From contig CAVYNY010000010.1 in the NCBI GenBank assembly GCA_963769935.1, forward strand, positions 224,001-288,000: DNA of 64,000 nt. Direction: 5' to 3'. Source of the DNA: an uncultured delta proteobacterium (GTDB taxonomy: Bacteria > Desulfobacterota > Desulfobacteria > Desulfobacterales > JAFDCJ01). Numbering within the stretch: the first letter of the stretch is position 1; every line of letters begins with the position of its first letter. Of the stretch, positions 13,940 through 35,168 are shown one piece after another. The translations under genes and the position numbers were made by a program. Below the pieces are notes generated by a model. It was not told where the DNA came from. It saw only the letters and a list, made by a program, of their open reading frames with translations, and ran no database searches.

Positions 13940-14835
13940 CTATCCGTTCAGAAGACTCGCCTTTACCAATATCTCCCTGATTTCCGACTTTTCCTTTTCG
14001 GACGCCGGCAGAAGCGGCGGGCGGGGTTCTCCGCCGAAATAGCCCAGCATATCCATGGCGGCCTTCAGGCCGGGGACGCCATAGGTGGCCGTTATGGCCT
14101 GATTGACCGGGATCATTTTAAGCTGCAGTTTTTTAGCCGCTTCAAAATTACCTTCTTTTACCAGCTCATATATTTCGACACACTGCCGCGGTGCGACATT
14201 GGCCAGGGCCAGCACGCCCCCGACACAGCCCAAAGCGAGGGCGCCGAATAAAGCGCCGGCGGTGCCGACCAGCAAATCGAAATTCGCATGGACATGATTT
14301 GCAAATTCACCCAGCTGAATCACATTGCCGGTGCTGTCTTTGATACCGACAATGTTGGCATGGCCCGATAACTCGGCGACCAGTTTGCAGGACATGTTCA
14401 CATGGGTAAATTTGGGAACATTGTACAACAAAATCGGGATCGGGGAATGATCGGCAACGGCTGTGAAGTAAGCCAGTAGCGCCGTTTCATTCATTCGACC
14501 GCCGAAATAGTGCGGCGTAACCACCAGCGCCGCATGGGCACCGAGCCCGGCACAATCACAGGTCAGATCAATGGTTTCTTTAGTTGATTCACAACCGGTG
14601 CCGGCAATAACCAGCATATGGTCCGGCGTCAATTCAACAGTCTTTTCAACGAGTTTTCTTTTTTCATCTGCCGCTAAGTAAACATACTCCCCGTTGGAAC
14701 CCATCACAACCAGGCCCTTAAGTCCGGTCCTGCTCCATTTTTCAATGTTGGCTGCCAGCCCATCATAGGCGATATTGCCGTTTATAAAAGGTGTGGGGAT
14801 GGGGGGAAAATTCCGTGTAAATCAATTTTGGACAT
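13940..14835 (-). CDS. DapA-family aldolase, 4-hydroxy-2-oxoglutarate aldolase-like; -1 frameshift in the homopolymer at 14801-14806
   Basis: Adding one C restores MSKIDLHGIFPPIPTPF...; GSNGE, YNVPKFT and GIKDS Schiff-base motif. Confidence 0.82.
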
Positions 14836-15133
14836 TCTAAAATTCCTTTGTTGAATTCCGAGAGTAACTTGCCATACTCAAAAATAGAGATAAAAAAACA
14901 CAAGGTGAAAAAATAGTGTCAGGTGTCGGTCCTTCGCCGCGCCGCAGCGGTTTCGGCCGCGCAGGCGGGTGTCTGAGTGAAAAAACGCAACTAATTTAAC
15001 CAAGGCAGTTTCCCGTGAAAATCCGGGACAAGAATGGCAGATGGTTCAGGGTCGAACTCCGCTTTGTGAAAAATGAGCAAATTTCATGATGACCATCTCA
15101 ACCATCTTAACGCCGACAGACTTCCCAAACGTC

Positions 15134-16393
15134 TTAACCAACCTGGTGATTCAAACCGGCCACCACCTGGGAAATATGACAGACTTTGGTCTTCAGCTCA
15201 TGCCGGCGAATGCCGTAGGACAACTGAATCATGCATGCCGGACAGGAAGTCACCAGCAAATCCGCATCGGTTTTTTTGAGATTTTCCATTTTCCGATCCA
15301 GCACCCTCTGGGACAGCTCATAATGGGAGAGTGCATAGGAGCCGGCTCCGCCGCAGCACCAATCCGCTTCGGGAAGCTCTCTATACTCAACACCTTCAAT
15401 TTTTTTAAGAATCTCTCGCGGTTCTTTGGTGATCTTTTGCCCGCGCGATGCATGGCAGGGATCATGATAGGTGACGACCACCGGAGCCTGCTTTTTTGCC
15501 GCCAGGTTGTCATTTGAAAATATCAACTCCACCGCATCCCGAAAACGCGGGGCTATATTTTCCGCCTGCGCCTGGCGTTCGTCGCCGGCAAAGATAGCCG
15601 GATATTTTTTCAAAAAGGATGCACAGCTTGAGCAATCCGTAACAATGACATCAAAATTATCGGAGGATAAGACATCCAGGTTTTTTGCGGCCAGCTTTTT
15701 GGCAGCGTCCAGGTCGCCATAGGAATGGGCCGGCAAACCGCAACAGCAATTATTCAGCAGAGTAACCGTTTTACCGATTTTTTTCAATAGCTGCAGCGTG
15801 GCTTCACCGGCTTCCTGTTGAATGACATCGACACCGCAGCCCACAAAGTAGCCGATGTGCTGCGTCTCTCCGCTGCCTTCGTAAACTCCGGGTTTGATGC
15901 GATCCCTAAACGGCAAGGGCGGAAGCTTTTCAATGATGCCTTCGGCCCGGGCAAAATCGCGGCCGAAAACCCGCAGCAGGCCCAGGGCGCGGGCCAGGCT
16001 GGATACGCCCGTGTTTTTCCCCAGCGCAACGGCGCGCGCCGCCAGATGCAACCGGCGGGGATAGGGTAGCAGATAATCAAAGAGCATCTTGTGAATAGGT
16101 TTGCGGTCAACCTTTTCAAGATATTCTGACCGGGCTTTAATCACCAGATCGGATGTGGGAACGGCCGGAAAGCAATTGGCCGTGCAGGCCCCACAACCCA
16201 GACAGTCAAAGAGCGGATCTTCGAGCTCTTTGTTCCAATCCAAACGCCCTTCGATGAGGGCCCGCAAAAGGGCCAGCCGGCCGCGGGCAACGCCGGATTC
16301 ATGACCGGTGGATCGAAATATCGGACAGGCAACCTGGCAGAAACCGCACTTGTTGCACTGTGAAATTTCATCATAGTATTTAGATATGTCCAT
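15134..16393 (-). CDS. glcF: Glycolate/D-lactate oxidase iron-sulfur subunit (two 4Fe-4S plus two CCG domains)
   Basis: CNKCGFCQVACP, CLGCGACTANC, CCGLP, YHDPCH and CCGGAGSY motifs. Confidence 0.88.
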   Translation of the reverse strand: MDISKYYDEISQCNKCGFCQVACPIFRSTGHESGVARGRLALLRALIEGRLDWNKELEDPLFDCLGCGACTANCFPAVPTSDLVIKARSEYLEKVDRKPIHKMLFDYLLPYPRRLHLAARAVALGKNTGVSSLARALGLLRVFGRDFARAEGIIEKLPPLPFRDRIKPGVYEGSGETQHIGYFVGCGVDVIQQEAGEATLQLLKKIGKTVTLLNNCCCGLPAHSYGDLDAAKKLAAKNLDVLSSDNFDVIVTDCSSCASFLKKYPAIFAGDERQAQAENIAPRFRDAVELIFSNDNLAAKKQAPVVVTYHDPCHASRGQKITKEPREILKKIEGVEYRELPEADWCCGGAGSYALSHYELSQRVLDRKMENLKKTDADLLVTSCPACMIQLSYGIRRHELKTKVCHISQVVAGLNHQVG

Positions 16394-16430
16394 TAAGAAT
16401 CCATTCCTTATTTCAAAATCAGCAAGCTTA

Positions 16431-16585
16431 GGGTTCACGAAAAAATTAATTCACAGTTTTGGCGTTGAGGCGCCCGCCCGGCAAGGCGCGAAAACGCAGG
16501 AATATCTGGATATTCCGAGCTTTCGCAACGCAGCCGGGCGGGATGCAGCGGCGTATAAAATGTGAAGTTATTTTTGAGTGAGCCC
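16431..16585. mobile_element. MITE-like non-autonomous element
   Basis: 25-bp imperfect terminal inverted repeats (20/25 match), TTA on both flanks, internal GC-rich hairpin, no transposase. Confidence 0.7.
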
Positions 16586-16643
16586 TTAGCCGGCTTAACT
16601 CTCAATCCGATACCCTTCGCGCTATGCTCTTTGCGCTATGCGC

Positions 16644-19235
16644 TTATACTTTCCCGGGCAGTCGACCGGGTGCAAAGATATTATCAGGATCAAGCTCAGC
16701 CTTTATCTTGTGAATAATCTTCCAAGCTGCTTGGGGCCGCCCGAACACGTCGCTGCGCTTTCTAAAATCATCGGGAGCCTTTTCCAACAGCAAATGTCCG
16801 TCATTTTCCGAGGCGAGACTGCATATCCTGTTCCATTGCTCTTCGCTCAGCTCCTCAAGACCGGCCAGTATCCTGCCGCAGCCGGAATCTAAAAATACAT
16901 TCGACAGCGACAGATTGTCATCAAGTGTCCTGAGGAAGCCGGCACACCGGTTCAATAGAAAATCACCCCGCAGGATGAAGGATGATCGTGCCAGTTTTTC
17001 GTAAATTTCACCAAAGGCGCCCTCGTGCACCGGATAGTCGGATTGCTGCATCACCTTCAGCCGGCCTTTCTGCAGCATGCTGCTGCATTTTTCGAGCTGA
17101 TAGTCGACGGTTTGGGAAAACCCTTCAAAACCGACGACGATATTCCAGATGCTGCGGTCAGCTTCGGCTCCCGGAGGATTTCCGGGCAGGCAGGTCACAA
17201 AAACCGGCTGGCAGTTGGACTTAAGAACCTCAAGGGCCGCGGCGGTGCATGCATCCAGCGAACCTTCGGCGGTTATCGCGGCACAGCGCTGCGGCAGAGT
17301 CGATACCCGCCAGGTGGCTTGCGTGATAAAACCGAGTGTTCCGGCCGAGCCGGTGATCAGACGGGTGATATCGTAACCGGCGACATTTTTAACCACCCTG
17401 CCGCCCGCAGATATCAAATTGCCGGCACTGTTGATGAAACGCAGACCCAGCAGAAGATCGCGCGGTGCGCCGTAGAGCAGACGTTCCGGTCCGCAGGCTG
17501 CCAGTGCAACCAGCCGGCCGATGGTGGAATTTTCTTTGAAAAAGGGCGGTCGAATCGGCAGCCACTGCTTGTGCTCCTGTAATTTTTCCTGCAGCGCTTT
17601 TAAAGTCATGCCCGTCCCTGTGGTAATCACCTGATTGGGCGGATCATACTCGATGACATCTGACAGGGAAGCACTTGCAAGATGCAGGGCATCGGGGGCC
17701 GACAGATTGCCGTATTGACTGTAGGTTCCGCCGCCCACGGGAATCACCTTCTGTCTCCGGGAGGCTGCGCTCTTGATCTGGGCCACAATTTCGGCGTCGG
17801 CGCCGTTGCCGGAAACGCCGCGGACCGCTTCTTCTTTATCGTCTTCTTTGGGCGGGGGAATCACCTTGCCGGGGTTGAGAATATTTGAGGGATCGAACGC
17901 ACGTTTCAATGCGCGCTGAACCATGAAATCATTTTCCGAAAAAACCATGCGCATGGCTTCCCGTTTCTCCAGCCCGATTCCGTGCTCACCGGATATGGTA
18001 CCACCCAGATCCACACAGGCTTGCATAATTTCCCAGCCGGCTTTTTCGACCCGGTGCAGCTGATCCTTGTCTCTGGAATCAAACAGCAGCAGCGGATGCA
18101 GATTGCCGTCGCCGGCATGAAAGACATTGCCGTGTTGACAGCCGTATTTTTTGGTAATCTCGGCCACCTTGGCCAGAGCCTCCGGCAATTTCGTGCGGGG
18201 CACGGTGGCATCGTTGACCAGATAATTCGGCGCCAGGCGGGCAACGGCACCGAAAGCACCTCGTCTGCCCTGCCATAGCCGGTTGCGCTCCGCATTGTCC
18301 TTGGCTTCCTGGATGTTGCGGCAATTGGTTTGCATGCAGATTTCCTGGATGCGCAGCGCCTGTTCCTTCAGGCCGGCTGCCGGACCTTCCACTTCAATGA
18401 TCAGAACGGCAGCGGCATCCCGCGGATAGCCGCAGGCATAGCTGTCCTCCACAGCTTTTATAATTGTGGCGTCCATCATTTCCAGCGTGTTGGGCAGGAT
18501 GCCGGCGGAAATGATGCCGGATACGGATTTTGCTGCATCGGCAATCGATTCGTAGATTGCCAGCATCGTGATGACCTTCTCTGCTTGGGGCAAAATGCGC
18601 ACTGTGATCTCCGTGACGATAGCCAGGGTGCCCTCGCTGCCGACCATGGCGCCGCGCAAATCCAGACCCGGCGGGTCAAGCGCGGCACCACCGATTCGCA
18701 TAATTTCACCATCCGACAGGATCATTTCCATTCCCAGGATATGATTGGTGGTTACCCCGTATTTCAGACAGCGCGGGCCACCCGAATTTTCACCGATGTT
18801 TCCGCCAATGGTCGAGACTTTCTGACTGGCGGGATCCGGTGCATAAAAATACCCCAAGGCTGCTGTAGCATCCTGCAGTTCCAGGTTGGTCACCGCCGGT
18901 TGAACCACCGCATAGCGGCTTTCGGGATAGATCCCCAGAATTCGATTCAGACGGGAAAGACAGATGATCAATCCCTGATCAGCCATAATCGTGCCGCCCG
19001 ATAGGTTGGTTCCAAATCCGCGGGGCACAAAGGCGACGGCTGCCCGGCGTGCGGCCCGCACGATCCGGGCGACCTGATCGCCATTGGCGGGAAAAACCAC
19101 AACACCGGGTTTTCCTTTGGCCAAAGAAGCATCATAAGAGTATAGTTCAGAGATAGTTCGAGACTTCGAAACCTGCTCTTTGCCGACAATGCTTTCCATC
19201 TCACGAATAAAAGTATCCGATATCATTTGGCTCAC
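16644..19235 (-). CDS. glcD: FAD-linked glycolate oxidase GlcD-GlcE fusion
   Basis: N-half PRGFGTNLSGG, PDPASQ, FHAGDGNLHP, GEHGIG; C-half GGRVVKNVAGYD and C-terminal LDPDNIFAPGR. Confidence 0.88.
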   Translation of the reverse strand: MSQMISDTFIREMESIVGKEQVSKSRTISELYSYDASLAKGKPGVVVFPANGDQVARIVRAARRAAVAFVPRGFGTNLSGGTIMADQGLIICLSRLNRILGIYPESRYAVVQPAVTNLELQDATAALGYFYAPDPASQKVSTIGGNIGENSGGPRCLKYGVTTNHILGMEMILSDGEIMRIGGAALDPPGLDLRGAMVGSEGTLAIVTEITVRILPQAEKVITMLAIYESIADAAKSVSGIISAGILPNTLEMMDATIIKAVEDSYACGYPRDAAAVLIIEVEGPAAGLKEQALRIQEICMQTNCRNIQEAKDNAERNRLWQGRRGAFGAVARLAPNYLVNDATVPRTKLPEALAKVAEITKKYGCQHGNVFHAGDGNLHPLLLFDSRDKDQLHRVEKAGWEIMQACVDLGGTISGEHGIGLEKREAMRMVFSENDFMVQRALKRAFDPSNILNPGKVIPPPKEDDKEEAVRGVSGNGADAEIVAQIKSAASRRQKVIPVGGGTYSQYGNLSAPDALHLASASLSDVIEYDPPNQVITTGTGMTLKALQEKLQEHKQWLPIRPPFFKENSTIGRLVALAACGPERLLYGAPRDLLLGLRFINSAGNLISAGGRVVKNVAGYDITRLITGSAGTLGFITQATWRVSTLPQRCAAITAEGSLDACTAAALEVLKSNCQPVFVTCLPGNPPGAEADRSIWNIVVGFEGFSQTVDYQLEKCSSMLQKGRLKVMQQSDYPVHEGAFGEIYEKLARSSFILRGDFLLNRCAGFLRTLDDNLSLSNVFLDSGCGRILAGLEELSEEQWNRICSLASENDGHLLLEKAPDDFRKRSDVFGRPQAAWKIIHKIKAELDPDNIFAPGRLPGKV

Positions 19236-19260: not shown

Positions 19261-19953
19261 TCAGGGTTTCACCCACCTGACAGCCAGAAAGGCGCCTGTC
19301 GCCAGGTTTCTTTTTTGCCCTGCCAGTTCAATTTCAGAAGCCCGACCGGGATCTTCGTCCTTTTGAAAATGGATCGCCGTCTTCACCTCGGCAGCGGCGC
19401 ACGCAAGGGCCCGCATATCATCCGGTGACCTGAAAATCATTTTCTGAAACAGGCGATGACCTTCTTTAGCTTTGTGCTTCCGGCGGGTGGCCCAGGGACT
19501 CAGGCTGTTTAAGGTTGTAACAACGATGGTGCCGCGCTTTTTGGTCACGCGAAATAATTCCCCGACAGCAGCCTGTCCGTCCTCGATAAACTCCAGGGCG
19601 GTCATCGAAAAGACCCTGTCAAAGCATTCCCCGGCAAAAGGCAGGGATATCATATCACCGGCAACGGCCTGGAAAGCATATCCCTTGGCCTTTTGATTGG
19701 CCCGCCGCAGCATCGGACTTGATATATCGAGTCCTATAACACGCGGTCCGCAGGAAAGGATATCGCCGGTAAACACCCCGGTTCCACAACCGACGTCCAG
19801 TATCACCTCTCCGCCCCCTGGCTTCAAAAAATCGAGGAGAAGCTCGCTTTCGTATCTCCTCACCAGGGCCCCGACCGGTGTTTCAAACCACTTATCATAT
19901 CGGTCGGGCCATTCGTCGAAAAGTCTTCCCGGGGTGTCAAGCTGAACAGACAT
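19261..19953 (-). CDS. Class I SAM-dependent methyltransferase
   Basis: ILDVGCGTG, GLDISSPML and LPFAGECFD motifs; start approximate. Confidence 0.85.
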   Translation of the reverse strand: MSVQLDTPGRLFDEWPDRYDKWFETPVGALVRRYESELLLDFLKPGGGEVILDVGCGTGVFTGDILSCGPRVIGLDISSPMLRRANQKAKGYAFQAVAGDMISLPFAGECFDRVFSMTALEFIEDGQAAVGELFRVTKKRGTIVVTTLNSLSPWATRRKHKAKEGHRLFQKMIFRSPDDMRALACAAAEVKTAIHFQKDEDPGRASEIELAGQKRNLATGAFLAVRWVKP

Positions 19954-20051: not shown

Positions 20052-20264
20052 CTATTCCATTACAATCAGAACAGCCTCTGCTTCCACTGCATCACCTTTT
20101 TTGCAGTTCACTTCTTTTACCGTACCGGAGGCCTCGGCCACTATGGGCAATTCCATTTTCATTGCCTCGATGATGACAACTTCTTCACCTTCCTGGACAC
20201 TGTCACCTACCTTTACCTTAACCTCAATAACCTTTCCTCCCATCGGCGATTTAACTTCACTCAC
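20052..20264 (-). CDS. Stand-alone biotin carboxyl carrier protein (70 aa)
   Basis: EAMKM biotinylation motif; GTG start after GGAGG RBS. Confidence 0.92.
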   Translation of the reverse strand: MSEVKSPMGGKVIEVKVKVGDSVQEGEEVVIIEAMKMELPIVAEASGTVKEVNCKKGDAVEAEAVLIVME

Positions 20265-20397: not shown

Positions 20398-20877
20398 TTA
20401 GGCTTTGGCGGGCGCCCTTTTCCCTTCCATTTTTTTGACGGATCGCGAAATGATCGCGCCGGAAACGGACATGCCGACCAGAAGAACAAGAAGCACGATA
20501 AAAACGCCGAAAAATCGTAAAATAAGGGTCCCGATGATCCAGGTCCAGTTGTCCTTCGTAATCACAACCAGGGCGCCCTTCGCATCATCCTTGGAGATTG
20601 TGATGGAATGCCATTTCAGATTTCCATCATCCTCGATGTAAGTGGCATCCTTCCAATTGCGATATTTGATATCTTTAAATTGTTCCAGTGCCTTTTTATA
20701 GTACTGGAGAACCTCGTCATGGGTTTTCCCGGAGTTCAGCTCCAATCTTTCCTTGGTTTTACTGATTTGCACGGCTCCCGGGATCACCGGCGCACCTAAA
20801 AAGTCATCGGCCCGGGACCATCCGGATACAGACACAATCCAACACACAATGAGCGTTAACAATATGATCTTTTTCAT
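20398..20877 (-). CDS. OadG-like membrane subunit with signal peptide and extracytoplasmic domain
   Basis: MKKIILL signal peptide, soluble domain, C-terminal TM RFFGVFIVLLVLL; lies between oadB and the biotin carrier gene. Confidence 0.6.
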   Translation of the reverse strand: MKKIILLTLIVCWIVSVSGWSRADDFLGAPVIPGAVQISKTKERLELNSGKTHDEVLQYYKKALEQFKDIKYRNWKDATYIEDDGNLKWHSITISKDDAKGALVVITKDNWTWIIGTLILRFFGVFIVLLVLLVGMSVSGAIISRSVKKMEGKRAPAKA

Positions 20878-20926: not shown

Positions 20927-22072
20927 TCAATCAAACATGGCGATAAACATACCGGCTGCGGCCGCCGACCCGATAACACCGGCGAGATTGGGTCCCATGG
21001 CGTGCATCAGCAGATGGTTTGTCTTATCGTATTTCGTACCCTGAACCTGGGATACCCGGGCCGCCATGGGAACGGCGGAAACCCCGGCCGAACCGATCAA
21101 GGGGTTGATCTTTTCTTTTAAAAAGAGATTCATGATCTTCACCGTGGCAATACCGCCGACGGTGCAGACACCAAAGTCAATCAGCCCCAGACCGAAAATG
21201 AAAAGCGGTTTCCAGCTCAGGAAGTTGTCGGCACTCATGGTTGCGCCGACCGAAACCCCCAGAAAAATGGTCACGATGTTCATCAATGCGCCCTGGGCAG
21301 TCTCGGTGAGCCGGCCGACAACCCCGCTTTCCTTCATCAGGTTGCCCAGCATGAACATGCCCATCAACGGCATGACAGACGGCACCAGCAGTGCGATAAT
21401 AGCGGCCGTAACCAGGGGAAACAGTATCTTTTCCTGCCGTGAGACGGGCCGCAGCTGGCGCATTCGTATCTTGCGCTCCGCGGGGGTGGTCATCCACTTC
21501 ATGATGGCCGGTTGGATCAGCGGCACCATGGCCATGTAGGAATAGGCCGCCAGCGCATTCGGACCGAGCAGCTGCGGCGCCAGGTGCTGGGTCAGATAGA
21601 TGGTCGTCGGACCGTCGGCCCCGCCGATGATGCCCACCGACGCCGCCTCCTTGAGGGTGAAGCCGGCCAGCACGGTGCCCGTAAAGGTGACGAAAACGCC
21701 CAATTGCGCTCCGGCTCCGACGAGCAGCGTTTTGGGATTGGCTATCAGCGGACCGAAATCGGTCATGGCGCCCAACCCCAGGAAGATGACACAGGGAATC
21801 ACCTCCCATTGCAGTCCGTAGTGATAAAATATCTCCAACAGATGGCGGTTGCCATCGGCTGATATTCCCATCATGGGCACCAAGGGAAAATTGACGATAA
21901 AAATCCCGAATCCAATGGGCAGAAGCAACAGGGGTTCAAATTTTTTGGCGATGGCCAAATAGATGAAAAACGAGGCAACCCCCCACATGATGATGACGTT
22001 CCAGTGGAAATTGAACACTCCGGTAGTATAGAGGATACCCCTCAGCATATCCAAAATTTCATTCGCAGTCAT
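20927..22072 (-). CDS. oadB: Na+-translocating decarboxylase beta subunit
   Basis: FEPLLLLPIGFG, GIIGGADGPT, AAYSYMAMVP, GVSAVPMAARV and HAMGPN motifs. Confidence 0.95.
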   Translation of the reverse strand: MTANEILDMLRGILYTTGVFNFHWNVIIMWGVASFFIYLAIAKKFEPLLLLPIGFGIFIVNFPLVPMMGISADGNRHLLEIFYHYGLQWEVIPCVIFLGLGAMTDFGPLIANPKTLLVGAGAQLGVFVTFTGTVLAGFTLKEAASVGIIGGADGPTTIYLTQHLAPQLLGPNALAAYSYMAMVPLIQPAIMKWMTTPAERKIRMRQLRPVSRQEKILFPLVTAAIIALLVPSVMPLMGMFMLGNLMKESGVVGRLTETAQGALMNIVTIFLGVSVGATMSADNFLSWKPLFIFGLGLIDFGVCTVGGIATVKIMNLFLKEKINPLIGSAGVSAVPMAARVSQVQGTKYDKTNHLLMHAMGPNLAGVIGSAAAAGMFIAMFD

Positions 22073-23584: not shown

Positions 23585-23645
23585 GGTGTAACCTCCCGTA
23601 TATTCTATTACGTATCAAAATTCTTTGAAAAAATGACGCATGCGT

Positions 23646-23933
23646 CTATTTCACCGACTTTCGCTTGGACTGGATGGTCGCGTCTTTATCTCGGCGGTCA
23701 TCCACCTTCAGGTCGATGGAAATCCTCCGGGCACCTGCATCCAGGTGGGCCTGATGCACTTTCTTTACCAGAAGGAACAAAGCGTCTAAATCCGGCACTT
23801 CAATACAGGTAGACATCCCGCCGATCTCATAATGATAACCGGACTCTTTGATGATCTCGATGCCCTTTTTGACGTAACGGCTCAAGCTGGTGCCCTCCCC
23901 GATGGGATATACCGATAGTTGTGCGAGGATCAT
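23646..23933 (-). CDS. MTH1187/YkoF-family thiamine-binding protein
   Basis: LSVYPIGEGTSLSRYV, GMSTCIE and LKVDDRRDK pattern. Confidence 0.85.
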   Translation of the reverse strand: MILAQLSVYPIGEGTSLSRYVKKGIEIIKESGYHYEIGGMSTCIEVPDLDALFLLVKKVHQAHLDAGARRISIDLKVDDRRDKDATIQSKRKSVK

Positions 23934-25051: not shown

Positions 25052-25089
25052 AAAAAGAGGCACAAAGAAATTCCTCATCTTTATGCCTC
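25052..25089 (-). terminator. Rho-independent terminator after the CoA-ester lyase gene
   Basis: Minus strand GAGGCATAAAGA-loop-TCTTTGTGCCTC followed by TTTTT. Confidence 0.7.
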
Positions 25090-25182
25090 CTGATCAAAGA
25101 CTTCTGATTCCCGGAACGCATCCGACTTAAGCGGTTTATACGGTCCACCAGAAACCTGACAGGTTGACAGCCTGCACCTGTA

Positions 25183-26147: not shown

Positions 26148-27044
26148 CTATAGATTAATGAGCTCTTTAATTTTGGGGGCAATTTCCTCGGGACTTTCGA
26201 CGACATGCGCCTTGGCCTCGGTCAGGGCCTTGATTTTACCCTGAGCGGTGCCCCGCCCGCGCTCTACGATGCTGCTGGCATGGGAAAACCGCATTCCCTC
26301 CGGTGCCCACGCGCCCGCGATATAGACAACCAGCGGCTTGGTGAACTCACCTTTGGCAACCGTCTCGGCCGCTTCCTCTTCCAGGGTTCCGCCGATTTCA
26401 CCAAAAATAGCCACTGCTTTGGTCTGTTCATCTTTTTCGAACAGCTTGAGCACATCGGACATGGTCAGGCCTAATACCGGCTCCGTTCCGATATGCAGGG
26501 CCGTGCTGATACCAAGGCCGGCCACCTTCAGGGCCCAGGGCACCGTTCCCGACTGACCGCCGCTGCGGGAGATGACCCCGACCGGACCCGGTTCGAATAG
26601 CATGCTGGCCCAATCCACGCTGCCGCCCAGCCAACCCATGGCGGCTTTGCCGGGACTGATGATTCCGAGGCTGCCGGGGCCCAGTATTTTGCCGCCGTTT
26701 TTCATCGCATAGTGGACCATGGCAATCACATCATGAACCGGGATGCGTTCCACCGGCGACACCACAAATTTGATGCCCGCGTCGATGGCTTCGTAAACCG
26801 CACTTTTTAACGCCGGGCCGGGAATGAAAGTCACGCTGGCATCCACCATCCCTTCATTATCGATGGCTTGCTGAACCGTGTCGTACACCGGCAGACCATG
26901 CACCTCTCCGCCGCCGCGCCCCGGAGTCACGCCGGCGACCACCTTGGTTCCATATTCTTTCATAAATTGGGTCCGCAGGGATCCTTCCCTGCCGGTCATT
27001 CCCTGGACAATGACCCTGGTATTTTCATCTAACAGTATTGACAT
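26148..27044 (-). CDS. Acid-CoA ligase (ADP-forming) alpha subunit, divergent SucD/MtkB/Ccs-like
   Basis: VIVQGMTG, VAGVTPGRGG, ISRSGG, FGEIGG; phospho-His motif RFSHASSIV. Confidence 0.88.
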   Translation of the reverse strand: MSILLDENTRVIVQGMTGREGSLRTQFMKEYGTKVVAGVTPGRGGGEVHGLPVYDTVQQAIDNEGMVDASVTFIPGPALKSAVYEAIDAGIKFVVSPVERIPVHDVIAMVHYAMKNGGKILGPGSLGIISPGKAAMGWLGGSVDWASMLFEPGPVGVISRSGGQSGTVPWALKVAGLGISTALHIGTEPVLGLTMSDVLKLFEKDEQTKAVAIFGEIGGTLEEEAAETVAKGEFTKPLVVYIAGAWAPEGMRFSHASSIVERGRGTAQGKIKALTEAKAHVVESPEEIAPKIKELINL

Positions 27045-27358: not shown

Positions 27359-27486
27359 ATTGAATATTTTCCATTGAATATTGAATATTTATGGCCCGCC
27401 TCCGGCGGACCAATTTTAAAAAAATTAAAAACGACGGAGCGCAGCAACGTCCACAAATATTCAATCTCCAATATTCAATTTTCAAT
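27359..27486. repeat. Dispersed palindromic repeat, copy 1 (ATTGAAT/ATTCAAT arms, GC core)
   Basis: Homologous in inverted orientation to 59596-59714. Confidence 0.8.
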
Positions 27487-28732
27487 GTTTTTCCTTCCGG
27501 TATTCATCGACCAGGGCTCGCACCCTGCCGCCGATGAATTTGGCATCGTAAACATGCTCCCGATCATAGATCTCAATCCTGGCATCAAGACCCGCTAAAC
27601 CCTCTTTTAGAATCTGCTGGGATTCGGATTCCTTGTTGCCGCAAAGCAGAAGAACCACCGGAAAACCCGGACGTTTGGGGAGTTCCTCCCGCAAAGCCTT
27701 GACAATGCCATGGGCATGATGCCACTGTTCCTGATTCGCCATCATAAACCCGGCCAAAAAATAGCCTTCAATGCCCGGTATCGACATGATAAGCTTGACG
27801 ACCCGATAAACTTTGGAAGCCGTCGGGTTGCCGCTGGTGTCGGCATAATCGGCGACTTTCAAATTCACCTTGTTGAGGGCATCCATACCGAGCATGGCCG
27901 CGCCGCCGCCGATGCCGTGGTAACCGACATAACCGCCCTTGGCTACCTCCTGCGGTTCGGCCATCTGGGCCACATAACTGGTGCCGCGGAAATCGCTCTC
28001 TTCAAACGACCAGGCGGTGAGATCAAAGTCGGTGGGCTCTTTGAGAAACTCACGGCCGATTTTGATCCCCAGATCGGGGTGTCTGAATAGGGCTTGGTCA
28101 TCGATCGCCATACGGCAATCGGCTGCCAGAACCTTGCCGTCGCGGGTCAGCACGAGGGGGTTGATTTCCAATGTCCGGCAGTCCATCTGCTGGAAGGCTT
28201 TGAAAAGTTTGAAAACGACATCGGCAATCGGCCTGAGCGTCTTACCCTTTACGCCCATTGAAGAGACCAGATTCAAGGTGTCATAGGGCATGAGTCCCTT
28301 GATGACATCCACATTCATGACAGCGATCTTATCCGCCGGCACCGACTCGATGTCCATGCCTCCCTCGGGGCTGAACATCAGCACCGGACCTCTGACCTCC
28401 TGGGCGGAGTTGATAATCACACCGGCATAAAATTCCTGGGCGATATCCAGCTTTTCTTCGACAAGGACCTGTTTGACTTCAAGCCCTTTGACCTGCATCC
28501 CCAGAATCGCTCGGGCGGCCGCTTCGGCCTCATCAGGCGTGTCGGCAAATTTCACCGCTCCGGATTTCCCCCTGCCGCCAGCCCAAACTTGCGCTTTAAC
28601 CACGACGGGCTTGGCCAGCTTTTCTGCCGCCTGCCTGGCCTCCTGGGGGGATTTCACTACCATCCCTTCAGGGATCGGAATACCGGATTTCTTAAAAACT
28701 TCCTTTCCCTGATACTCAAAAAATTTTGCCAT
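27482..28732 (-). CDS. Acid-CoA ligase (ADP-forming) beta subunit, ATP-grasp, ACL/Ccs-like substrate domain
   Basis: EYQGKE, VVKAQVWAGGRGKSG, EGGMDIE and LEINPL motifs; C-domain IGGGAAM...ADTSGNPT...MAN. Confidence 0.88.
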   Translation of the reverse strand: MAKFFEYQGKEVFKKSGIPIPEGMVVKSPQEARQAAEKLAKPVVVKAQVWAGGRGKSGAVKFADTPDEAEAAARAILGMQVKGLEVKQVLVEEKLDIAQEFYAGVIINSAQEVRGPVLMFSPEGGMDIESVPADKIAVMNVDVIKGLMPYDTLNLVSSMGVKGKTLRPIADVVFKLFKAFQQMDCRTLEINPLVLTRDGKVLAADCRMAIDDQALFRHPDLGIKIGREFLKEPTDFDLTAWSFEESDFRGTSYVAQMAEPQEVAKGGYVGYHGIGGGAAMLGMDALNKVNLKVADYADTSGNPTASKVYRVVKLIMSIPGIEGYFLAGFMMANQEQWHHAHGIVKALREELPKRPGFPVVLLLCGNKESESQQILKEGLAGLDARIEIYDREHVYDAKFIGGRVRALVDEYRKEKH

Positions 28733-28780: not shown

Positions 28781-28791
28781 TGGTAGGACCA
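28781..28791. promoter_or_regulatory. FadR/GlcC/LldR-type operator TGGTAGGACCA upstream of the ligase operon
   Basis: TGGT-N3-ACCA palindrome, downstream of a minus-strand TTGACA at 28821-28826. Confidence 0.7.
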
Positions 28792-29011: not shown

Positions 29012-29782
29012 ATGGTCAGACCAACTTTCCAACCCATTAAACAGGAAAAAATCTCGGCGAAAATCGCAGAACAAATAAAATCGCTCATCACAAAGGGTGA
29101 ATTGAAACCCGGTGATGTTCTACCCCCCGAAAGAGAACTCGTCAAGATTTTTAAAGTGAGTCGTGCCTCCCTGCGTGAAGCACTGAAATCACTGACGGGG
29201 ATGGGTTTTCTGGAGATTACCCAGACGCATCGGACCATTGTAAAATCACTGGCCGCCGGCCGGATTACCGAACCTCTGGACTATCTTATCAGGGAGGACA
29301 TTCACACCGTCCTTGAGCTGATCGAAGTCCGAAAGGCAATCGAGATATGGAATGCATATTATGCAGCAGAAAGGGCTAAGGATGAGGATGTTGCCCGACT
29401 CGAAAACAGCGTGGCATCAATGCGGAAAAAAATTGAACAGCACAGCAGTGCGGTGGAAGAAGACGCCAATTTTCATATCGCCGTCTCCCAGGCCGCGCAC
29501 AACAAAATACAGACCCATTTGATGTTCTCCATATATGACCTACTTAAAGAATCCATCGCCAACTACTTCGATAACTTTAAACTGAATTATATACTTGATC
29601 AGCACTCGCGGGTGGTTGAAGCCATTAGAAAAAAAGATCCGGTGCTGGCCAGCAGAAGAATGCGGGAACACCTAGACTACGTCGAGTCTGTGGTAAAGGA
29701 ACATGCCGCTTCCCAAATTACTGAGTCCGACTGGCAAAGTTCAGCCAATGCGATAGTCGGACGAAGCTACGGCAGCAACTAA
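29012..29782 (+). CDS. GntR/FadR-family transcriptional regulator
   Basis: LKPGDVLPPEREL...VSRASLREAL HTH; FCD domain with DANFH and QHSRVVEAI. Confidence 0.93.
   Translation: MVRPTFQPIKQEKISAKIAEQIKSLITKGELKPGDVLPPERELVKIFKVSRASLREALKSLTGMGFLEITQTHRTIVKSLAAGRITEPLDYLIREDIHTVLELIEVRKAIEIWNAYYAAERAKDEDVARLENSVASMRKKIEQHSSAVEEDANFHIAVSQAAHNKIQTHLMFSIYDLLKESIANYFDNFKLNYILDQHSRVVEAIRKKDPVLASRRMREHLDYVESVVKEHAASQITESDWQSSANAIVGRSYGSN
29013..29023. promoter_or_regulatory. FadR-type operator TGGTCAGACCA overlapping the regulator start (autoregulation)
   Basis: TGGT-N3-ACCA palindrome matching the site at 28781. Confidence 0.65.
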
Positions 29783-30275: not shown

Positions 30276-30734
30276 TCACACCCCTTTGAACTTCATTTCC
30301 CGGTTGGTTAACCGCATCTTCTTCAGTACCTGCTGGAGTTGATCGTCAGTGATACGGCAAAACAGGTAGGCTTTTTCACGCTCCAGGCGAAACCGGATAA
30401 AACTGTACGGCATAAAGGCCAACCGCGGACCTTCCACCAGAGAAACCGCGTCGGCCTTGAAGCTGAGCACCCGCCTGAAACTGGTGAATTCAATCGTTCC
30501 CTTCTCATTAATGGAGACCCTGTATGAAATTCCCAGTGAAAAAAACCAGGTATACCCCAGCACAAATGCGATCATGAGCAGCTGAAACAACGGCCATCCG
30601 GCGCGGAGCGTTTTTGATCCGATCATCACAACGCAAACGACGGTCCATACCAGCAAAAGCATATAAAAAAGCCCCACAAAGATGATTGGGGCCTGATAAA
30701 GGTAGTCTTTTTTAGGCAACTTTTCTTTTTTCAT
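30276..30734 (-). CDS. Hypothetical membrane protein (2 TM plus soluble C-domain)
   Basis: Two hydrophobic helices; directly downstream of dctM. Confidence 0.65.
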   Translation of the reverse strand: MKKEKLPKKDYLYQAPIIFVGLFYMLLLVWTVVCVVMIGSKTLRAGWPLFQLLMIAFVLGYTWFFSLGISYRVSINEKGTIEFTSFRRVLSFKADAVSLVEGPRLAFMPYSFIRFRLEREKAYLFCRITDDQLQQVLKKMRLTNREMKFKGV

Positions 30735-30787: not shown

Positions 30788-30820
30788 CCGTATATTAATC
30801 ATCGGACGCAATGCAATCAT

Positions 30821-32131
30821 CTAGTACAGGAGGCTGGGCAGCCACAGTATGATTTCCGGGAAGAACATGACCAGAACCACCCCAAAAATCTGCAGGCACA
30901 TGAAAGGGGCCGCAGACTTCCAGATATCCGTCGTTGAGATCTCGGGCGGTGCCACCCCCTTTAAATAGAAAAGCGCATAACCGAAAGGCGGCGAAAGAAA
31001 GGAAATCTGCAAATTGGTGGCAAAGAGCACGCCGAACCAAACCGGATCAAAACCCAGGTGCCGCACAATGGGACCGAAAATGGGGACACACAGCATGATG
31101 ATGCCGACCCAGTCAATGAAACATCCCAGGAACATCAGAATAAACTGCATGACAATGATGATGCCCCATCTTCCCAAACCGGAGCCTAGCAGCATCTGGG
31201 TCACAAATTCGCCGCCGCCCACCATGACGTATAAACCCACAAATATATTGGCGCCAAAAATGGTCCACATAACCATGGCCGAAGATTTAAGCGTATTTTC
31301 AGCGGCCTGCACGACGCCTTTCCATTTCAGCTTGCCCTGTATGGCGGTCATTATGATAGCACCGGCGGCTCCCACGCCGGCCGCCTCGGTGGGCGCCGCG
31401 ATACCGGTAAATATGGTGCCCAGCACCAGAAATATGAGAATGGCAGGCGCGACGATCCGCGCCAGGAGTTTCAGTCTGGCCTTAAGGGGCAGGCGATCTT
31501 CCGGCGGAACCGGCGGCCCCAGGGTGGGATTAATATAACATCGGATCGTAACATAAGCTATGAACAACGACGACAGCATTATCCCGGGCATAATGGCCCC
31601 GGCATAAAGCTGGCCGATGGAGCTGTTATCCACCAGGCCGTAGACGATCAGCATGACGCTGGGAGGAATCAGGATTCCCAGCGTGCCGCCGGCCAAGATG
31701 GAGCCGCAGGCAATATATTTGTCATATTGTCGCCTGAGCATTTGCGGCAGTGCGATAACGCCCATGGTAACTTCGCTGGCGCCGATGACGCCCACCATGG
31801 CCGCCAGCATCGTACAGGCCATTACCGTCGCTGTTGCCACGCCGCCTTTAATGGCCCCCATCCACTGGTATACCAGTTCATAGAGCTCCTCGATAATACC
31901 CGATCTTTCCAGAATGCAGGCCATGAAGATAAACAGGGGGATGGCTGCCAGCAGATAATTCATCATAAGCCCGAAAATTCTGGTGGAAACCAGGTTTACA
32001 GCGGCCGGGCCCTGAAGCAGGGCGGTAAAAATCACGCCCACCGAGCCGCAGGCAAATGCCACGGGCAGTCCCAGTCCCAACAGGAAGAACAAGGATCCGA
32101 ACATCAATACGGTAATCCATTCAATACTCAT
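30821..32131 (-). CDS. dctM: TRAP transporter large permease
   Basis: LAAIPLFIFM, GTLGILIPPS, PTEAAGVG and SFLSPPFG motifs. Confidence 0.93.
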   Translation of the reverse strand: MSIEWITVLMFGSLFFLLGLGLPVAFACGSVGVIFTALLQGPAAVNLVSTRIFGLMMNYLLAAIPLFIFMACILERSGIIEELYELVYQWMGAIKGGVATATVMACTMLAAMVGVIGASEVTMGVIALPQMLRRQYDKYIACGSILAGGTLGILIPPSVMLIVYGLVDNSSIGQLYAGAIMPGIMLSSLFIAYVTIRCYINPTLGPPVPPEDRLPLKARLKLLARIVAPAILIFLVLGTIFTGIAAPTEAAGVGAAGAIIMTAIQGKLKWKGVVQAAENTLKSSAMVMWTIFGANIFVGLYVMVGGGEFVTQMLLGSGLGRWGIIIVMQFILMFLGCFIDWVGIIMLCVPIFGPIVRHLGFDPVWFGVLFATNLQISFLSPPFGYALFYLKGVAPPEISTTDIWKSAAPFMCLQIFGVVLVMFFPEIILWLPSLLY

Positions 32132-32676
32132 GTCATTTCCCTCCCTGTTATCGCTACATGTAAATCCCGAATCCACCAGACGATACCCTGCAGTAACAGC
32201 ATCAGAGCCCCGAACGGCATCATGAATTTAACCGGATAATAGGGAGGGGACCAGTCGGTCAGAGACAGTTCTCCCGGAACCGTTATGCCCAGGAAGGTTC
32301 CGCCCCCATGCATGGTTTGAGAACTCCAGTAAAAGGTCCAGCAGGTCCAGAGCAGCACCCCGTTGAAAATAAAGAAAAAAATGCTGGTGAAAAGATCCAG
32401 AAAGGCCCGTGTCCTTCTTGAACGGGTGGCATAGAAGACGTCCACCCTCACATGCGCGCGGTGATAGTGACAATAACCCGCTACAAACATGTACTGAATG
32501 GCAAATAAAATGGTCATGGTTTCATGACCCCAGTTGGTCGGCAATCCGAAAACATAGCGCATCACAACTTCAAATGTGATCACTGAAACCGCCGCCAGTG
32601 TTACCCCGACCATCATCTTGCCGATAAAGATGTTGGTTTTCTCGATGGCGATCATGAATTTTCTCAAACGTTTCAT
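32128..32676 (-). CDS. dctQ: TRAP transporter small permease
   Basis: EVVMRYVF and HVRVDVF motifs, 4 TM; overlaps the dctM start by 4 bp. Confidence 0.92.
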   Translation of the reverse strand: MKRLRKFMIAIEKTNIFIGKMMVGVTLAAVSVITFEVVMRYVFGLPTNWGHETMTILFAIQYMFVAGYCHYHRAHVRVDVFYATRSRRTRAFLDLFTSIFFFIFNGVLLWTCWTFYWSSQTMHGGGTFLGITVPGELSLTDWSPPYYPVKFMMPFGALMLLLQGIVWWIRDLHVAITGREMT

Positions 32677-32804: not shown

Positions 32805-32816
32805 TTAAAATTCGAA

Positions 32817-33968
32817 TTAAAATTCCAGTTTTTTACCGTCGTAATCGACCATATCCGCATCTGTAATATAGTCCATCTTGACGGATTTCATGTATGCCAG
32901 CTGGGACTTGAAGGCCTTCATCGCCCGCGGCGACTTCTTGGCCCACTTGACCCACATCGCCGGCGCAAACCGCCGGAACTTGGCAATGTCTTCTTCGGTC
33001 AGGCGGATGACCTCCACGCCCTGTTCTTTCTGAAACTTTTCAAAGGCCACGATATCGGCCGCCTGAATCGCCGTGTATTGGTCCCTGGAATGTTCGACCA
33101 TGGCCGCTTCCAGCAGCGCCTGCAGATGCGGCGGAATTTTCTTCCAGGAATTCATATTGATGGCAATTCCCATCAGGTCGACGGGCTGATGCAGGCACGG
33201 CGTCGACGGCGGACCCATGATGATGTACTTGGCGATTTCGCCGAATCCCAGGTTGTAGTTGATGGCGGCCCCCACGTAGTCGGCACCGTCGATAACGCCT
33301 TTTTCCAGGGCCGGGTAGACCTCGCCGCCCGGCAGCAGTACCGTGGCCACACCGGCGGCCCGGTAAATATCGGCGATGATACCGCCCGGGTAGCGGATCT
33401 TTTTGCCCTTGAAATCCTCAAAGTGCCGGATCGGCACCTTGGAGTGGATCAGGTTGTCGTCGTGCTGGATGGGGCCGATCCAGTACATGTTTTGTTCGCC
33501 ATAGGCCTCGCGGGCAAGTTCTTTGCCGCCCAGCACGGTATACCAGGTATCCCATTGATCCGGCCGGTCCATCCCAAAGGGATAGGACGACAGAAAGGTT
33601 GCCACCGGAATCTTGCCCGGCCAGTAAACCTCGAAGCAGTGCATGGAGTCGAAAACACCGGCCTTGACGGCATCAAACATCTCGAACGTGCCCACGATGG
33701 CGCCGGCCGGAAACCCCTCGACTACCAGTTTGCCCTCGGTCATATTGCCGACATTGGCACAAAACTCCTTGAATTTCGTAAAACCCAGGGTCCCGGCATC
33801 CCAGGCCGTCTGCATCTTGATGGTAATGGTTTCGGCAGCCGAAAGACGCATCACGGCCGGAAAACCGATCGAGCCTGCGGCAGCGCCGGCCACGGCGGCT
33901 GTCTTCAGGAATTTCCGGCGGGACAGTTTCTGGTTCTTTGTCTTGTCTTGCTTTACTTTTTCTGACAT
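32817..33968 (-). CDS. dctP: TRAP substrate-binding protein with Tat signal (TakP-like, 2-oxo/2-hydroxy monocarboxylate type)
   Basis: SRRKFLK Tat motif; KMQTAW, YWPGK, KIRYPGG and EVYPALEKGVID motifs. Confidence 0.9.
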   Translation of the reverse strand: MSEKVKQDKTKNQKLSRRKFLKTAAVAGAAAGSIGFPAVMRLSAAETITIKMQTAWDAGTLGFTKFKEFCANVGNMTEGKLVVEGFPAGAIVGTFEMFDAVKAGVFDSMHCFEVYWPGKIPVATFLSSYPFGMDRPDQWDTWYTVLGGKELAREAYGEQNMYWIGPIQHDDNLIHSKVPIRHFEDFKGKKIRYPGGIIADIYRAAGVATVLLPGGEVYPALEKGVIDGADYVGAAINYNLGFGEIAKYIIMGPPSTPCLHQPVDLMGIAINMNSWKKIPPHLQALLEAAMVEHSRDQYTAIQAADIVAFEKFQKEQGVEVIRLTEEDIAKFRRFAPAMWVKWAKKSPRAMKAFKSQLAYMKSVKMDYITDADMVDYDGKKLEF

Positions 33969-34117
33969 TAGCTACCTCCTTGGCACAATAGGGTTTAGAG
34001 AATTTTTCGGACCTTAGCAATGCTCGCAACCGTGGTCCTTTCCACTATAAAACGCGATCGCCTGCGATTGATCTATGCCCTGAATCCAAACAGGAAGATG
34101 ACGCATTTAGACCAATA

Positions 34118-34132
34118 TTCCACAATATGGAA
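34118..34132. promoter_or_regulatory. IclR-type operator TTCCACAATATGGAA upstream of dctP
   Basis: Exact reverse complement of the site at 34390-34404. Confidence 0.7.
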
Positions 34133-34389
34133 CACGATTCTACATTTTCGTCCGCACGTGTAGCAGATGAAACATTTCTGTGTCAAGCAAAATTTATTTT
34201 TTCCGTTATTCCTTTTAAGGTAGAAGCCCGCAGCTACAGCATCTGTTCAAACAATGGTGGATCCAAACAGGGATATCCATCCTTGAACACTGCTGCCGTC
34301 AACCGTCCGGCTGCCGGACTGCCATTTAACGAAAGTTGCTTGACAGCGCTTTGAGGATGCGGTAGGTAGCTCCATATTATAAAAACGAA

Positions 34390-34404
34390 TTCCATATTGT
34401 GGAA
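34390..34404. promoter_or_regulatory. IclR-type operator TTCCATATTGTGGAA just before the iclR start
   Basis: 15-bp imperfect palindrome 5 bp upstream of the ATG. Confidence 0.7.
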
Positions 34405-34409
34405 CATCC

Positions 34410-35168
34410 ATGAAATCACTTTTGAAGGCAATCGATACCATTGAGGCCGTTGGGCGGGCAGGGAGCGTGGGAATTCGTGAGCTCTCGTCAATGACCGGCT
34501 TTCCTCCGTCGACCATCCATCGAATCGTCGCTACCCTGATGGCAAAGCATTACTTGCGCCAGGATCCTTTTACCAAACGCTATTCACTTTCATTCCGGTT
34601 TTTAGAACTCGGTTCCCAGGTCCAAAAACAGTTTCATCTGGTCTCCATCGCACGGCCTCATTTGGAGGGGCTTATGGCTGATGCGAAGGAAAGCGTCAAT
34701 CTCGCTGTTCAGGACGGAGACGGCGTCGTATACCTGGATTGCGTGCAAAGCAACTATTCCATGCTTCAGCTATTCACCAAACCGGGGGCCCGGGTGCCGC
34801 TATATGCCACAGCGGTAGGTAAAATGTTTCTCAGCCAGATGACGGAATCCGACCTCAATGGGTATCTGGATCGGACCCGCCTCACCCTCAATACCCCGTA
34901 TACTCGCATTGAACCCGGTGAAATCATCGAAGATCTGAAACAGATCCGGCTCCAGGGATATTCGGTAGACGATGAGGAAATGGAAGAAGGCGTGCGGTGT
35001 GTGGCGGCGCTCATCTACGACCACACCAAAAAACCCGCCGCAGCCATTTCAATTTCCGGCGCTTCCATGCGGGTTGCCCCCGCCCGGATATCGTATTTTG
35101 GAGAGTTAACCAAATCCTGCGCTGCTGCCATATCCAGCGAACTGGGATTTAATCACAGCATCAAATGA
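34410..35168 (+). CDS. IclR-family transcriptional regulator
   Basis: HTH ...STIHRIVATL; PLYATAVGK and GYSVDDEEMEEGVRCVA motifs. Confidence 0.94.
   Translation: MKSLLKAIDTIEAVGRAGSVGIRELSSMTGFPPSTIHRIVATLMAKHYLRQDPFTKRYSLSFRFLELGSQVQKQFHLVSIARPHLEGLMADAKESVNLAVQDGDGVVYLDCVQSNYSMLQLFTKPGARVPLYATAVGKMFLSQMTESDLNGYLDRTRLTLNTPYTRIEPGEIIEDLKQIRLQGYSVDDEEMEEGVRCVAALIYDHTKKPAAAISISGASMRVAPARISYFGELTKSCAAAISSELGFNHSIK

Follow-up and report, generated by a model that had tools for sequence, protein, structure and literature searches.

How might a sulfate-reducing bacterium in which no malate synthase can be found bring glyoxylate into central metabolism, and could it gain ATP in doing so? The question is raised by a locus of an uncultured delta proteobacterium (Desulfobacterales; GenBank assembly GCA_963769935.1), which lies in a 64,000-nucleotide stretch of contig CAVYNY010000010.1 (positions 224,001 to 288,000) that is referred to here as the window. 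Positions 13940-35168 of the window hold 20 genes, among them genes for a TRAP transporter, a FadR-type regulator, an acid-CoA ligase, a CitE-type lyase, an oxaloacetate decarboxylase (Oad) and a GlcDEF-type dehydrogenase. The source genome (G000) is 96.7% complete, belongs to a sulfate reducer and encodes DsrA as well as acetyl-CoA synthase (ACS). A sequence-only reading of the region had proposed one energy-conserving system that uses glycolate and glyoxylate via malyl-CoA or, alternatively, citrate. Each gene that it named was found where it had been placed, and three genes missing from its list (a 152-aa membrane protein, a thiamine-binding protein, TBP, and a methyltransferase, MTase) were added. 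In this report, we describe a core of four genes that, as judged from comparative genomics, quite likely takes the place of malate synthase in the use of glycolate and glyoxylate and conserves energy as ATP.

The four-gene core and its proteins

A scan of GTDB genomes with the ligase beta subunit gave 163 confirmed relatives, and the best 80 of these are the loci counted below, with neighbours taken within 10 kb. Many of the 80 are close kin and the counts are not independent; the neighbour labels were verified on examples. The hosts include Desulfobacterota (Desulfofustis glycolicus, Desulfospira, Bilophila), Moorella, Dehalobacter, Desulfosporosinus, Desulfitobacterium and metagenome-assembled genomes of Actinomycetota. 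The order ligase beta, ferredoxin-like protein, ligase alpha is found in 72 of the 80 loci, the remaining eight stop at contig ends, and ligase alpha never occurs without the ferredoxin gene. The lyase follows in 67 of the 72. The invariant core consists of ligase beta, the ferredoxin-like protein, ligase alpha and the CitE-type lyase.

The most frequent neighbours are GlcD-like (46 loci) and GlcF-like (42) genes, followed by TBP (35), DctP (34), MTase (34), a formyltransferase-fold protein (Fmt, 32), pyruvate:ferredoxin oxidoreductase (PFOR, 25), malic enzyme (16), Oad (12), a glyoxylate-type aminotransferase (10), LarA-like proteins (6), malate dehydrogenase (MDH, 5), the permease LctP (4), a HOGA-like aldolase (2) and an IclR regulator (1). 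At least one of GlcD, malic enzyme, MDH and PFOR is present in 52 of the 60 loci that measure 12 kb or more. The expected synteny of ligase, ferredoxin and lyase is conserved; the expected linkage to the dehydrogenase holds for the 46 loci with GlcD-like genes, and that to Oad for only 12. The HOGA-like and IclR genes, which had been counted as parts of the system, are lineage-level neighbours outside the conserved unit and were rejected as core members. TBP and MTase lie between the lyase and GlcDE in about 35 loci. At locus L005 the genes in front of the cassette ligase encode a HOGA-like aldolase and a 2-oxoacid oxidoreductase, and at L068 and L069 the ligase precedes a 2-hydroxy-3-oxopropionate-reductase-like gene, with a 569-aa oxidoreductase-like gene in between at L068.

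The ligase belongs to the superfamily of ADP-forming acid-CoA ligases (PF08442, PF02629), and the phosphohistidine H255 and E216 are invariant. The best families are SucC and SucD, with scores that stay under their cut-offs (264 vs 370 bits for beta and 285 vs 336 for alpha), and beta scores 176.9 bits against a cut-off of 604 for NF010647 (MtkA). A separate, true SucCD pair is encoded at contig C19 of the same genome (583 and 449 bits) in a methylmalonyl-CoA cluster. The succinate loop GGITR/GGIVR is replaced in beta by MANQEQWHHA. The loops of the acid pocket are specific to this family and hardly vary: D(T/S)SGNP is found in 71 of 71 orthologues, MMANQEQWHHA in 68 and LL(C/A)GN in 71; the last stands where ATP-citrate lyase (ACL) and citryl-CoA synthetase (CCS) carry RR(G/A/N)G, a motif found in none of the 71. 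Residue 379, an arginine within this motif, is listed among the citrate-site residues of ACLY (PMC11365397), and in our alignment 6HXQ reads VRRNGP at this place. A FastTree phylogeny was built from 125 rows (111 of 150 representatives, after removal of 11 partial rows and of sequences shorter than 355 aa, plus 14 of our own), with no named MtkA or CcsA reference among them. The cassette betas form a single clade (support 100) within a larger xSGNP clade (99), apart from the SCS-like and RR(G/A)GP-bearing groups and from the genome's own SucC. By these sequence comparisons, the cassette ligase is distinct from MtkAB, SucCD and Ccs.

The ferredoxin-like protein is likely a subunit of the ligase, as judged from gene order and natural fusions. 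A ferredoxin-like domain is fused to the C-terminus of beta in 13 of the 150 best beta representatives, which argues that the seven-cysteine protein is part of the enzyme. The predicted monomer structure of the protein (pLDDT 83.6) gave no PDB match at E <= 0.001 and only weak ferredoxin-domain rows, and an Atlas search with it returned only clusters without names. A wider family of beta-ferredoxin fusions with other acid loops (e.g., GSGVASQEQ) was also seen (P0002, P0003, P0006, P0010, P0012, P0017, P0020, P0031 and others), and these predicted ligases probably use other substrates. In the class of Dehalobacter the ferredoxin gene occurs in 60 of 112 genomes and lies between beta and alpha in all 30 loci inspected; a housekeeping role of the cassette is possible there. 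Malic enzyme stands behind the cassette in named loci of this class (L075, L076, L088-L117).

In the lyase, D32, E34, D35, R68, E131, D158 and D273 are invariant, all but D32 in 42 aligned rows. These six comprise the catalytic Arg, the lid Asp and the Mg-binding Glu/Asp expected of malyl-CoA lyases; they are common to the whole CitE superfamily and are therefore not substrate-specific. The lid carries Asp and not the Glu of the thioesterase. Val157 occupies a site before the Mg-binding Asp that is Ala in malyl-CoA lyases (MCLs), Val in haloarchaeal MCL/malate synthases and Glu in CitE 1sgj and CLYBL. The Ala site, the haloarchaeal Val and the MCL catalytic residues are described in PMC3832036, and the lyase has all of the latter. 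The best fold matches are MCLs, and the protein is predicted to be a malyl-CoA lyase.

Apparent exchange of the core with malate synthase

AceA and AceK of the source genome score over their cut-offs, and no malate synthase was found in this 96.7% complete genome. AceK and isocitrate lyase (C10:694702-697901; L085, L124) are preceded by fumarase and PFOR genes and followed by transhydrogenase-like genes. Counting the source genome, 16 of the 23 genomes of its genus carry AceA/AceK, and isocitrate lyase occurs in 15 of the 22 others. Ligase and malate synthase occur together in none of 41 genomes. Of the 17 that have isocitrate lyase, 10 have the ligase only, four malate synthase only, none both and three neither, with the lyase on short contigs in two of these three. 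The p value of Fisher's test (0.015) overstates the case because the genomes are kin and partly overlap the 80 loci.

In a closely related genome (G012), a gene for malate synthase A (818 bits vs a cut-off of 594) lies at L125:11985-13589 (G012:C131) in the position that ligase alpha has elsewhere, 170 bp upstream of a CitE gene whose product is 88% identical to that of the window, and is followed by the run CitE-Fmt-TBP-MTase-GlcDE-GlcF-HOGA. Neither subunit of the cassette ligase was found in this 82% complete genome, and malate synthase seems to have assumed the role of the cassette there. In place of the cassette, the GlcDE run is preceded in two further genomes (G020 and G016) by the gene for a class V aminotransferase, whose best family is the aspartate-glyoxylate aminotransferase BhcA, with a score below the cut-off. 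The aminotransferase genes lie at L128:11440-12609 and L126:1852-3021, before the Fmt/GlcDE run, and the cassette and the TRAP genes are absent there. The cassette, malate synthase and an aminotransferase thus appear to be three modules that alternate ahead of one dehydrogenase, and both modules to which a name can be given are predicted to act on glyoxylate. The natural REPLACEMENTS is the strongest new evidence for the malyl-CoA reading, and the malate synthase pattern is new. The aminotransferase context may also explain the formyl-tetrahydrofolate (THF)-hydrolase-like gene, with glyoxylate passing through glycine to C1 units.

A proposed malyl-CoA route and its alternatives

In the pathway that we favour, glycolate would enter through the TRAP transporter and be oxidised by GlcDE/GlcF to glyoxylate, which the lyase would join to acetyl-CoA to give malyl-CoA. 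The ligase would release malate and CoA from malyl-CoA, forming ATP from ADP and phosphate. Either malic enzyme or MDH together with the Oad pump, the latter with export of Na+, would convert malate to pyruvate, and PFOR would regenerate acetyl-CoA from pyruvate, so that the net reaction would be glycolate to 2 CO2 with the electrons passing to sulfate. Substrates and direction are what we infer here; the source genome holds candidates for glycolate dehydrogenase, lyase, ligase, malic enzyme or MDH plus Oad, and PFOR. The same core probably also takes the glyoxylate made by the isocitrate lyase of the genome.

Three sources describe a malyl-CoA pathway used by D. glycolicus, Syntrophobotulus glycolicus and Moorella (PMC6313629), physiological and enzymatic evidence for it in S. 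glycolicus and Moorella HUC22-1 (PMC8092247), and the physiology of S. glycolicus (PMC3156405). The chemistry predicted here (glycolate to glyoxylate, malyl-CoA, malate, pyruvate and acetyl-CoA) is that of the anaerobic pathway of S. glycolicus FlGlyR and Moorella sp. HUC22-1, and orthologues of the core are present in D. glycolicus and Moorella species. That pathway is known from physiology and extract assays; the window adds the TRAP transporter, the FadR operator and an optional Oad. The four core genes of D. glycolicus (L018) are 79-84% identical to those of the window and lie next to genes for GlcF, PFOR and a GlcD-GlcE fusion. The lyase gives the sole PF03328 match of that genome, in which malate synthase and CitF were not found. 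The original D. glycolicus paper reportedly left the fate of glyoxylate unresolved. In the Moorella loci malic enzyme lies directly behind the lyase. S. glycolicus is not among the named cassette matches in the best 80 of the 163 relatives. No assignment of genes to the malyl-CoA pathway was found in the searchable full-text literature; subscription journals and primary papers lie mostly outside it, and an earlier assignment, for example in the Moorella genome papers, is possible. On this reading the pathway is known biochemically, its genes are probably unassigned and its ligase is unusual.

Three known systems can be compared with the core. MtkAB and malyl-CoA lyase of the serine cycle (Methylorubrum) share the two predicted reactions and the folds, but the window ligase has other acid-pocket loops, an extra Fe-S-type protein and a likely opposite, ATP-forming direction, and its partner lyase shares 29% identity with M. 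extorquens MCL. CcsAB and ACL (6HXQ, 6HXJ) share the ATP-grasp beta and CoA-binding alpha subunits, the GGG and xGNP loops and the two-step logic of ligase plus lyase. The window ligase lacks their RR(N/G)GP arginines and its partner lyase is a CitE-type TIM barrel, whereas Ccl is citrate-synthase-like. The E. coli glc operon (glcC-glcDEFG-glcB) likewise has a divergent FadR-type regulator beside the glycolate dehydrogenase genes and a glyoxylate-condensing step in the run. The window encodes a GlcD-GlcE fusion, and lyase and ligase take the place of malate synthase G, so that the thioester energy would be kept as ATP.

Several observations weigh against the malyl-CoA reading, besides the kinship of the 41 genomes. 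GlcD exceeds its cut-off of 567.9 only when two domains are summed (597.5; the GlcD stretch alone gives 503.9); GlcE and GlcF remain below theirs (236 vs 284 and 148 vs 333), with all three domains present, and GlcD-type enzymes also oxidise D-lactate. DctP matches the lactate-binding TTHA0766 (2ZZV) with 451 bits (the next match other than TTHA0766 has 142), and LarA-family racemases lie near six loci. D. glycolicus has a glyoxylate carboligase over the cut-off, an alternative route that leaves the cassette as not its only option. Four loci (L005, L068, L069, L077) carry beta, ferredoxin and alpha with no neighbouring CitE. The lyase is only 25-29% identical to solved MCLs, lacks most of the insertion after strand 6 (30-40 residues in MCLC/MCLR) and does not have the conserved Ala. 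The G012 genome is incomplete, as noted, and its contig stops 139 bp upstream of malate synthase. A Dehalobacter genome (G004) has the core and malic enzyme and gave no match for GlcD; with the ferredoxin gene in 60 of 112 genomes of its class, this indicates that the core is not always glycolate-catabolic. Because GlcD is borderline, the relative of DctP binds lactate and Dehalobacter has the core without GlcD, the direction and main purpose may differ by lineage. The Dehalobacter data also fit the same chemistry put to another purpose, either the conversion of malate to glyoxylate and acetyl-CoA at the cost of ATP, as a supply of glycine and C1 units or an electron sink, or mainly a glyoxylate shunt with isocitrate lyase. 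The aminotransferase and formyl-THF-hydrolase-like neighbours and the AceA/AceK genes of the genus agree with this, MCL is reversible according to PMC3832036, and the ferredoxin gene is close to being a core gene of that class. In the present lineage, by contrast, GlcDE/GlcF and a hydroxyacid transporter belong to the same run as the core, and malate synthase, with which the core is exchanged, only consumes glyoxylate; we consider another purpose unlikely here, though less so than the readings that follow. Thiokinases are reversible.

The transporter match and an LldR/PdhR-like regulator, together with PFOR, LctP and LarA-family neighbours, would also suit the use of lactate or another 2-hydroxyacid, with GlcDEF making pyruvate and with ligase and lyase acting on citramalyl-CoA, which MCLs can also cleave (PMC3832036), or on another acyl-CoA. 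This leaves unexplained the malate synthase or glyoxylate aminotransferase in the place of the ligase, the malic enzyme that in 16 loci lies near the lyase or directly behind it and the GlcE domain, and position 157 of the lyase is without the Glu of CLYBL and CitE 1sgj; it is an improbable account. Catabolism of citrate through citryl-CoA to acetyl-CoA and oxaloacetate, followed by Oad, was the alternative offered by the sequence-only reading and fared poorly. It draws on citryl-CoA synthetase 6HXQ as the second-best PDB match of beta (174 bits, with the xGNP loop in common), on a faint citrate-binding Pfam match below the cut-off and on TIGR01588 citE as the best NCBIfam family of the lyase (194.5 vs a cut-off of 443.4), and citrate lyase operons come with Oad or with malic-type decarboxylases. 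Against these stand LL(C/A)GN in place of RR(N/G)GP in 71 of 71 orthologues, the place of the cassette clade in the tree, apart from homologues that bear RR(G/A)GP, the lack of CitF in five of five genomes searched (G000 and four others; citD was not searched), the monocarboxylate, lactate-type transporter and MDH beside Oad, which indicates malate and not oxaloacetate as the product. We regard the citrate route as very improbable. Least probable of all, to the point of being nearly negligible, is an ordinary succinyl-CoA synthetase (SCS) with unrelated neighbours: the best families are SucC/SucD and the best PDB matches are SCS, but the scores fall under the cut-offs, a true SucCD lies elsewhere, the succinate loop is replaced and the order of the four genes does not vary between phyla. 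The malyl-CoA route remains the reading that we prefer.

Neighbouring genes, regulation and significance

The features of the region are collected in Table 1.

Table 1. Features in positions 13940-35168 of the window.
Feature	Position	Strand	Remarks
IclR-family regulator	34410..35168	+	weak linkage, 1/80 loci
TRAP DctP, Tat signal	32817..33968	-	451 bits to TTHA0766 (2ZZV)
TRAP DctQ	32128..32676	-	
TRAP DctM	30821..32128	-	exceeds TIGR00786 cut-off
152-aa membrane protein, no family	30276..30734	-	accompanies TRAP genes, 12/80 loci
FadR-subfamily GntR regulator	29012..29782	+	PdhR/LldR/GlcC-like, under those families' cut-offs
TGGT-N3-ACCA box	29013..29023	.	overlaps regulator's start codon
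TGGT-N3-ACCA box, putative operator	28781..28791	.	upstream of ligase beta
Ligase beta, ADP-forming acid-CoA ligase, distinct clade	27482..28732	-	DTSGNP, MANQEQWHHA, LLCGNK; core
Ferredoxin-like protein, 94 aa	27057..27341	-	7 invariant Cys; core
Ligase alpha	26148..27044	-	phospho-His motif FSHAS (H255), E216 invariant; core
CitE-superfamily acyl-CoA lyase, predicted malyl-CoA lyase	25183..26079	-	core
Terminator-like hairpin with U run, 3' of lyase	25052..25091	-	14 pairs
Formyltransferase-fold protein (Fmt)	24037..24949	-	nearest ALDH1L1 10-formyl-THF hydrolase domain; 32/80 loci
MTH1187/YkoF thiamine-binding protein (TBP)	23646..23933	-	35/80 loci
OadA/PycB carboxyltransferase, no biotin domain	22088..23584	-	accessory
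OadB, Na+-translocating decarboxylase beta	20927..22072	-	exceeds TIGR01109 cut-off
OadG-like membrane protein	20398..20877	-	faint PF04277 match, E 0.06
Stand-alone biotin carrier	20052..20264	-	
SAM-dependent methyltransferase (MTase)	19261..19953	-	34/80 loci
GlcD-GlcE fusion, predicted glycolate (or D-lactate) dehydrogenase	16644..19226	-	
GlcF-type Fe-S/CCG subunit	15134..16399	-	
DapA-family aldolase, HOGA-like	13940..14835	-	215 bits to human HOGA1 vs 126 to DHDPS; genus-level neighbour

The sequence-only reading had cautioned that no MDH gene lies in the window, and this is correct. MDH is encoded elsewhere in the genome (G000:C4:37311-38236, in frameshifted pieces), with malic enzyme on C13 and PFOR at C10:688715-692197, and the missing MDH was rejected as a gap in the pathway. 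Near the cassette, malic enzyme and Oad never occur together (none of the 16 and 12 loci, respectively), and four of the five MDH loci also have Oad; the step from malate to pyruvate thus seems to be solved in either of two ways. Judged by gene content, Na+ export is an optional gain and the source genome has both routes. The 12 Oad loci draw on two non-orthologous OadA families, and in ten loci besides that of the window the Oad is of another kind (an OadA of about 30% identity, or an OadB that stands at a contig end). The OadA type of the window was not found in 40 relatives (best matches at most about 70% over the full length, mostly to a longer paralogue), and its OadG-like protein occurs in two of 301 genomes. 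OadA scores 594 against a cut-off of 756, having no biotin domain. In loci L002 and L008 only the biotin carrier remains between TBP and MTase, which suggests loss of Oad. Among 80 metagenome loci with an OadA 78-94% identical to that of the window, OadB is present in six, MDH in 15 and a CitE orthologue in one. Metagenome locus L190 reads CitE-Fmt-TBP-OadA-OadB-OadG-MDH and L138 keeps the downstream order of the window. The OadG-like gene follows OadB in five of the six metagenome loci showing OadB, and an Atlas search with its product returned only clusters without names. The window shares the carboxyltransferase, the biotin carrier and an OadB over the cut-off with the Na+-translocating OadABG; its biotin carrier is separate, its gamma-like protein is enlarged, and close OadA homologues mostly lack OadB (present in 6/80) and often lie beside MDH, fumarate reductase and fumarase genes. 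Oad was therefore rejected as part of the conserved system and is accessory, being found at 12 of 80 loci. Comparative genomics thus gives good support to the proposed conversion of glycolate and glyoxylate through malyl-CoA to malate and ATP, and supports the single integrated system with Na+ export only in part. The chances that Oad is used in the glycolate route are about even, and the pump adds little, being a general module for C4-dicarboxylates that a few lineages have recruited.

DctP likely binds a 2-hydroxy-monocarboxylate such as glycolate or lactate, as its closest characterised relative suggests. A second, solitary dctP at G000:C11:136594-137739 encodes a protein 97.6% identical to it. 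The FadR gene and its TGGT-N3-ACCA boxes are present as the sequence-only reading had it; the regulator is not co-oriented with the cassette and lies divergent from ligase beta. There are three exact matches to the box in the window vs 0.74 expected, and in 51 of 76 related loci the 300 bp that precede ligase beta contain an exact box, compared with 3.0% of 5000 random 300-bp windows. The box over the start of the regulator gene likely serves a putative autoregulation. The third match (47879-47889) is at the end of an open reading frame and is probably due to chance. A search with one mismatch gave 12 matches vs 11.3 expected, which is at chance level, and the box search of the window found none before Fmt, oadA, glcDE or dctP. 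The terminator placed at about 25052-25089 is a real hairpin (25055-25091) with a short U run (z -2.4; equally stable in 3 of 200 shuffles) that separates the lyase from the OadA gene. A promoter/terminator scan of the window gave output near background, and the hairpin is absent from it because its loop is 9 nt.

Two genes carry one-base frameshifts, Fmt near 24208 and the HOGA-like gene near 14810. Each of the 14 Fmt orthologues with more than 60% identity is intact. In run X4, a nearly identical contig, the sole related one to show the correction, has one base fewer at 24208, and in run X1, which has the largest share of the stretch, a one-base gap lies somewhere within 23107-24321. The frameshifts are probably assembly errors because further genes of the same assembly are split. 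RNA-library contigs from one study span the region and, as they show no transcription units or levels, were not counted as evidence of expression. Short intergenic repeats at 16426-16590 and 27359-27484 have at least 92 and 85 blastn matches in the genome, and the former is missing from related contigs. Downstream of the HOGA-like gene (11208-13681) are a D-2-hydroxyacid dehydrogenase gene and a split M20 peptidase gene, in an order kept in relatives L125 and L133.

The use of glycolate and glyoxylate through malyl-CoA by anaerobes has been described from extracts since the 1990s, and the four core genes are direct candidates for it that occur in culturable strains (D. glycolicus DSM 9705, Moorella). 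We also put forward, tentatively and with somewhat more doubt than belief, that a three-subunit Fe-S malate-CoA ligase that evolved apart from MtkAB and a new lineage of malyl-CoA lyase replace malate synthase in anaerobes, which would provide sediment sulfate reducers with the missing genes of the anaerobic glycolate pathway and with a glyoxylate shunt (AceA and AceK) in which ATP is made and malyl-CoA is not hydrolysed, with an Fe-S subunit that possibly gates ATP formation by redox state. If true, two points would surprise specialists: an Fe-S-type domain that is obligatory in a CoA ligase, and a sulfate reducer whose glyoxylate shunt runs without malate synthase. Synthetic pathways of photorespiration and C2 assimilation would benefit from a route that forms ATP on the way from glyoxylate and acetyl-CoA to malate, and the core genes would mark the turnover of algal glycolate in sediments.

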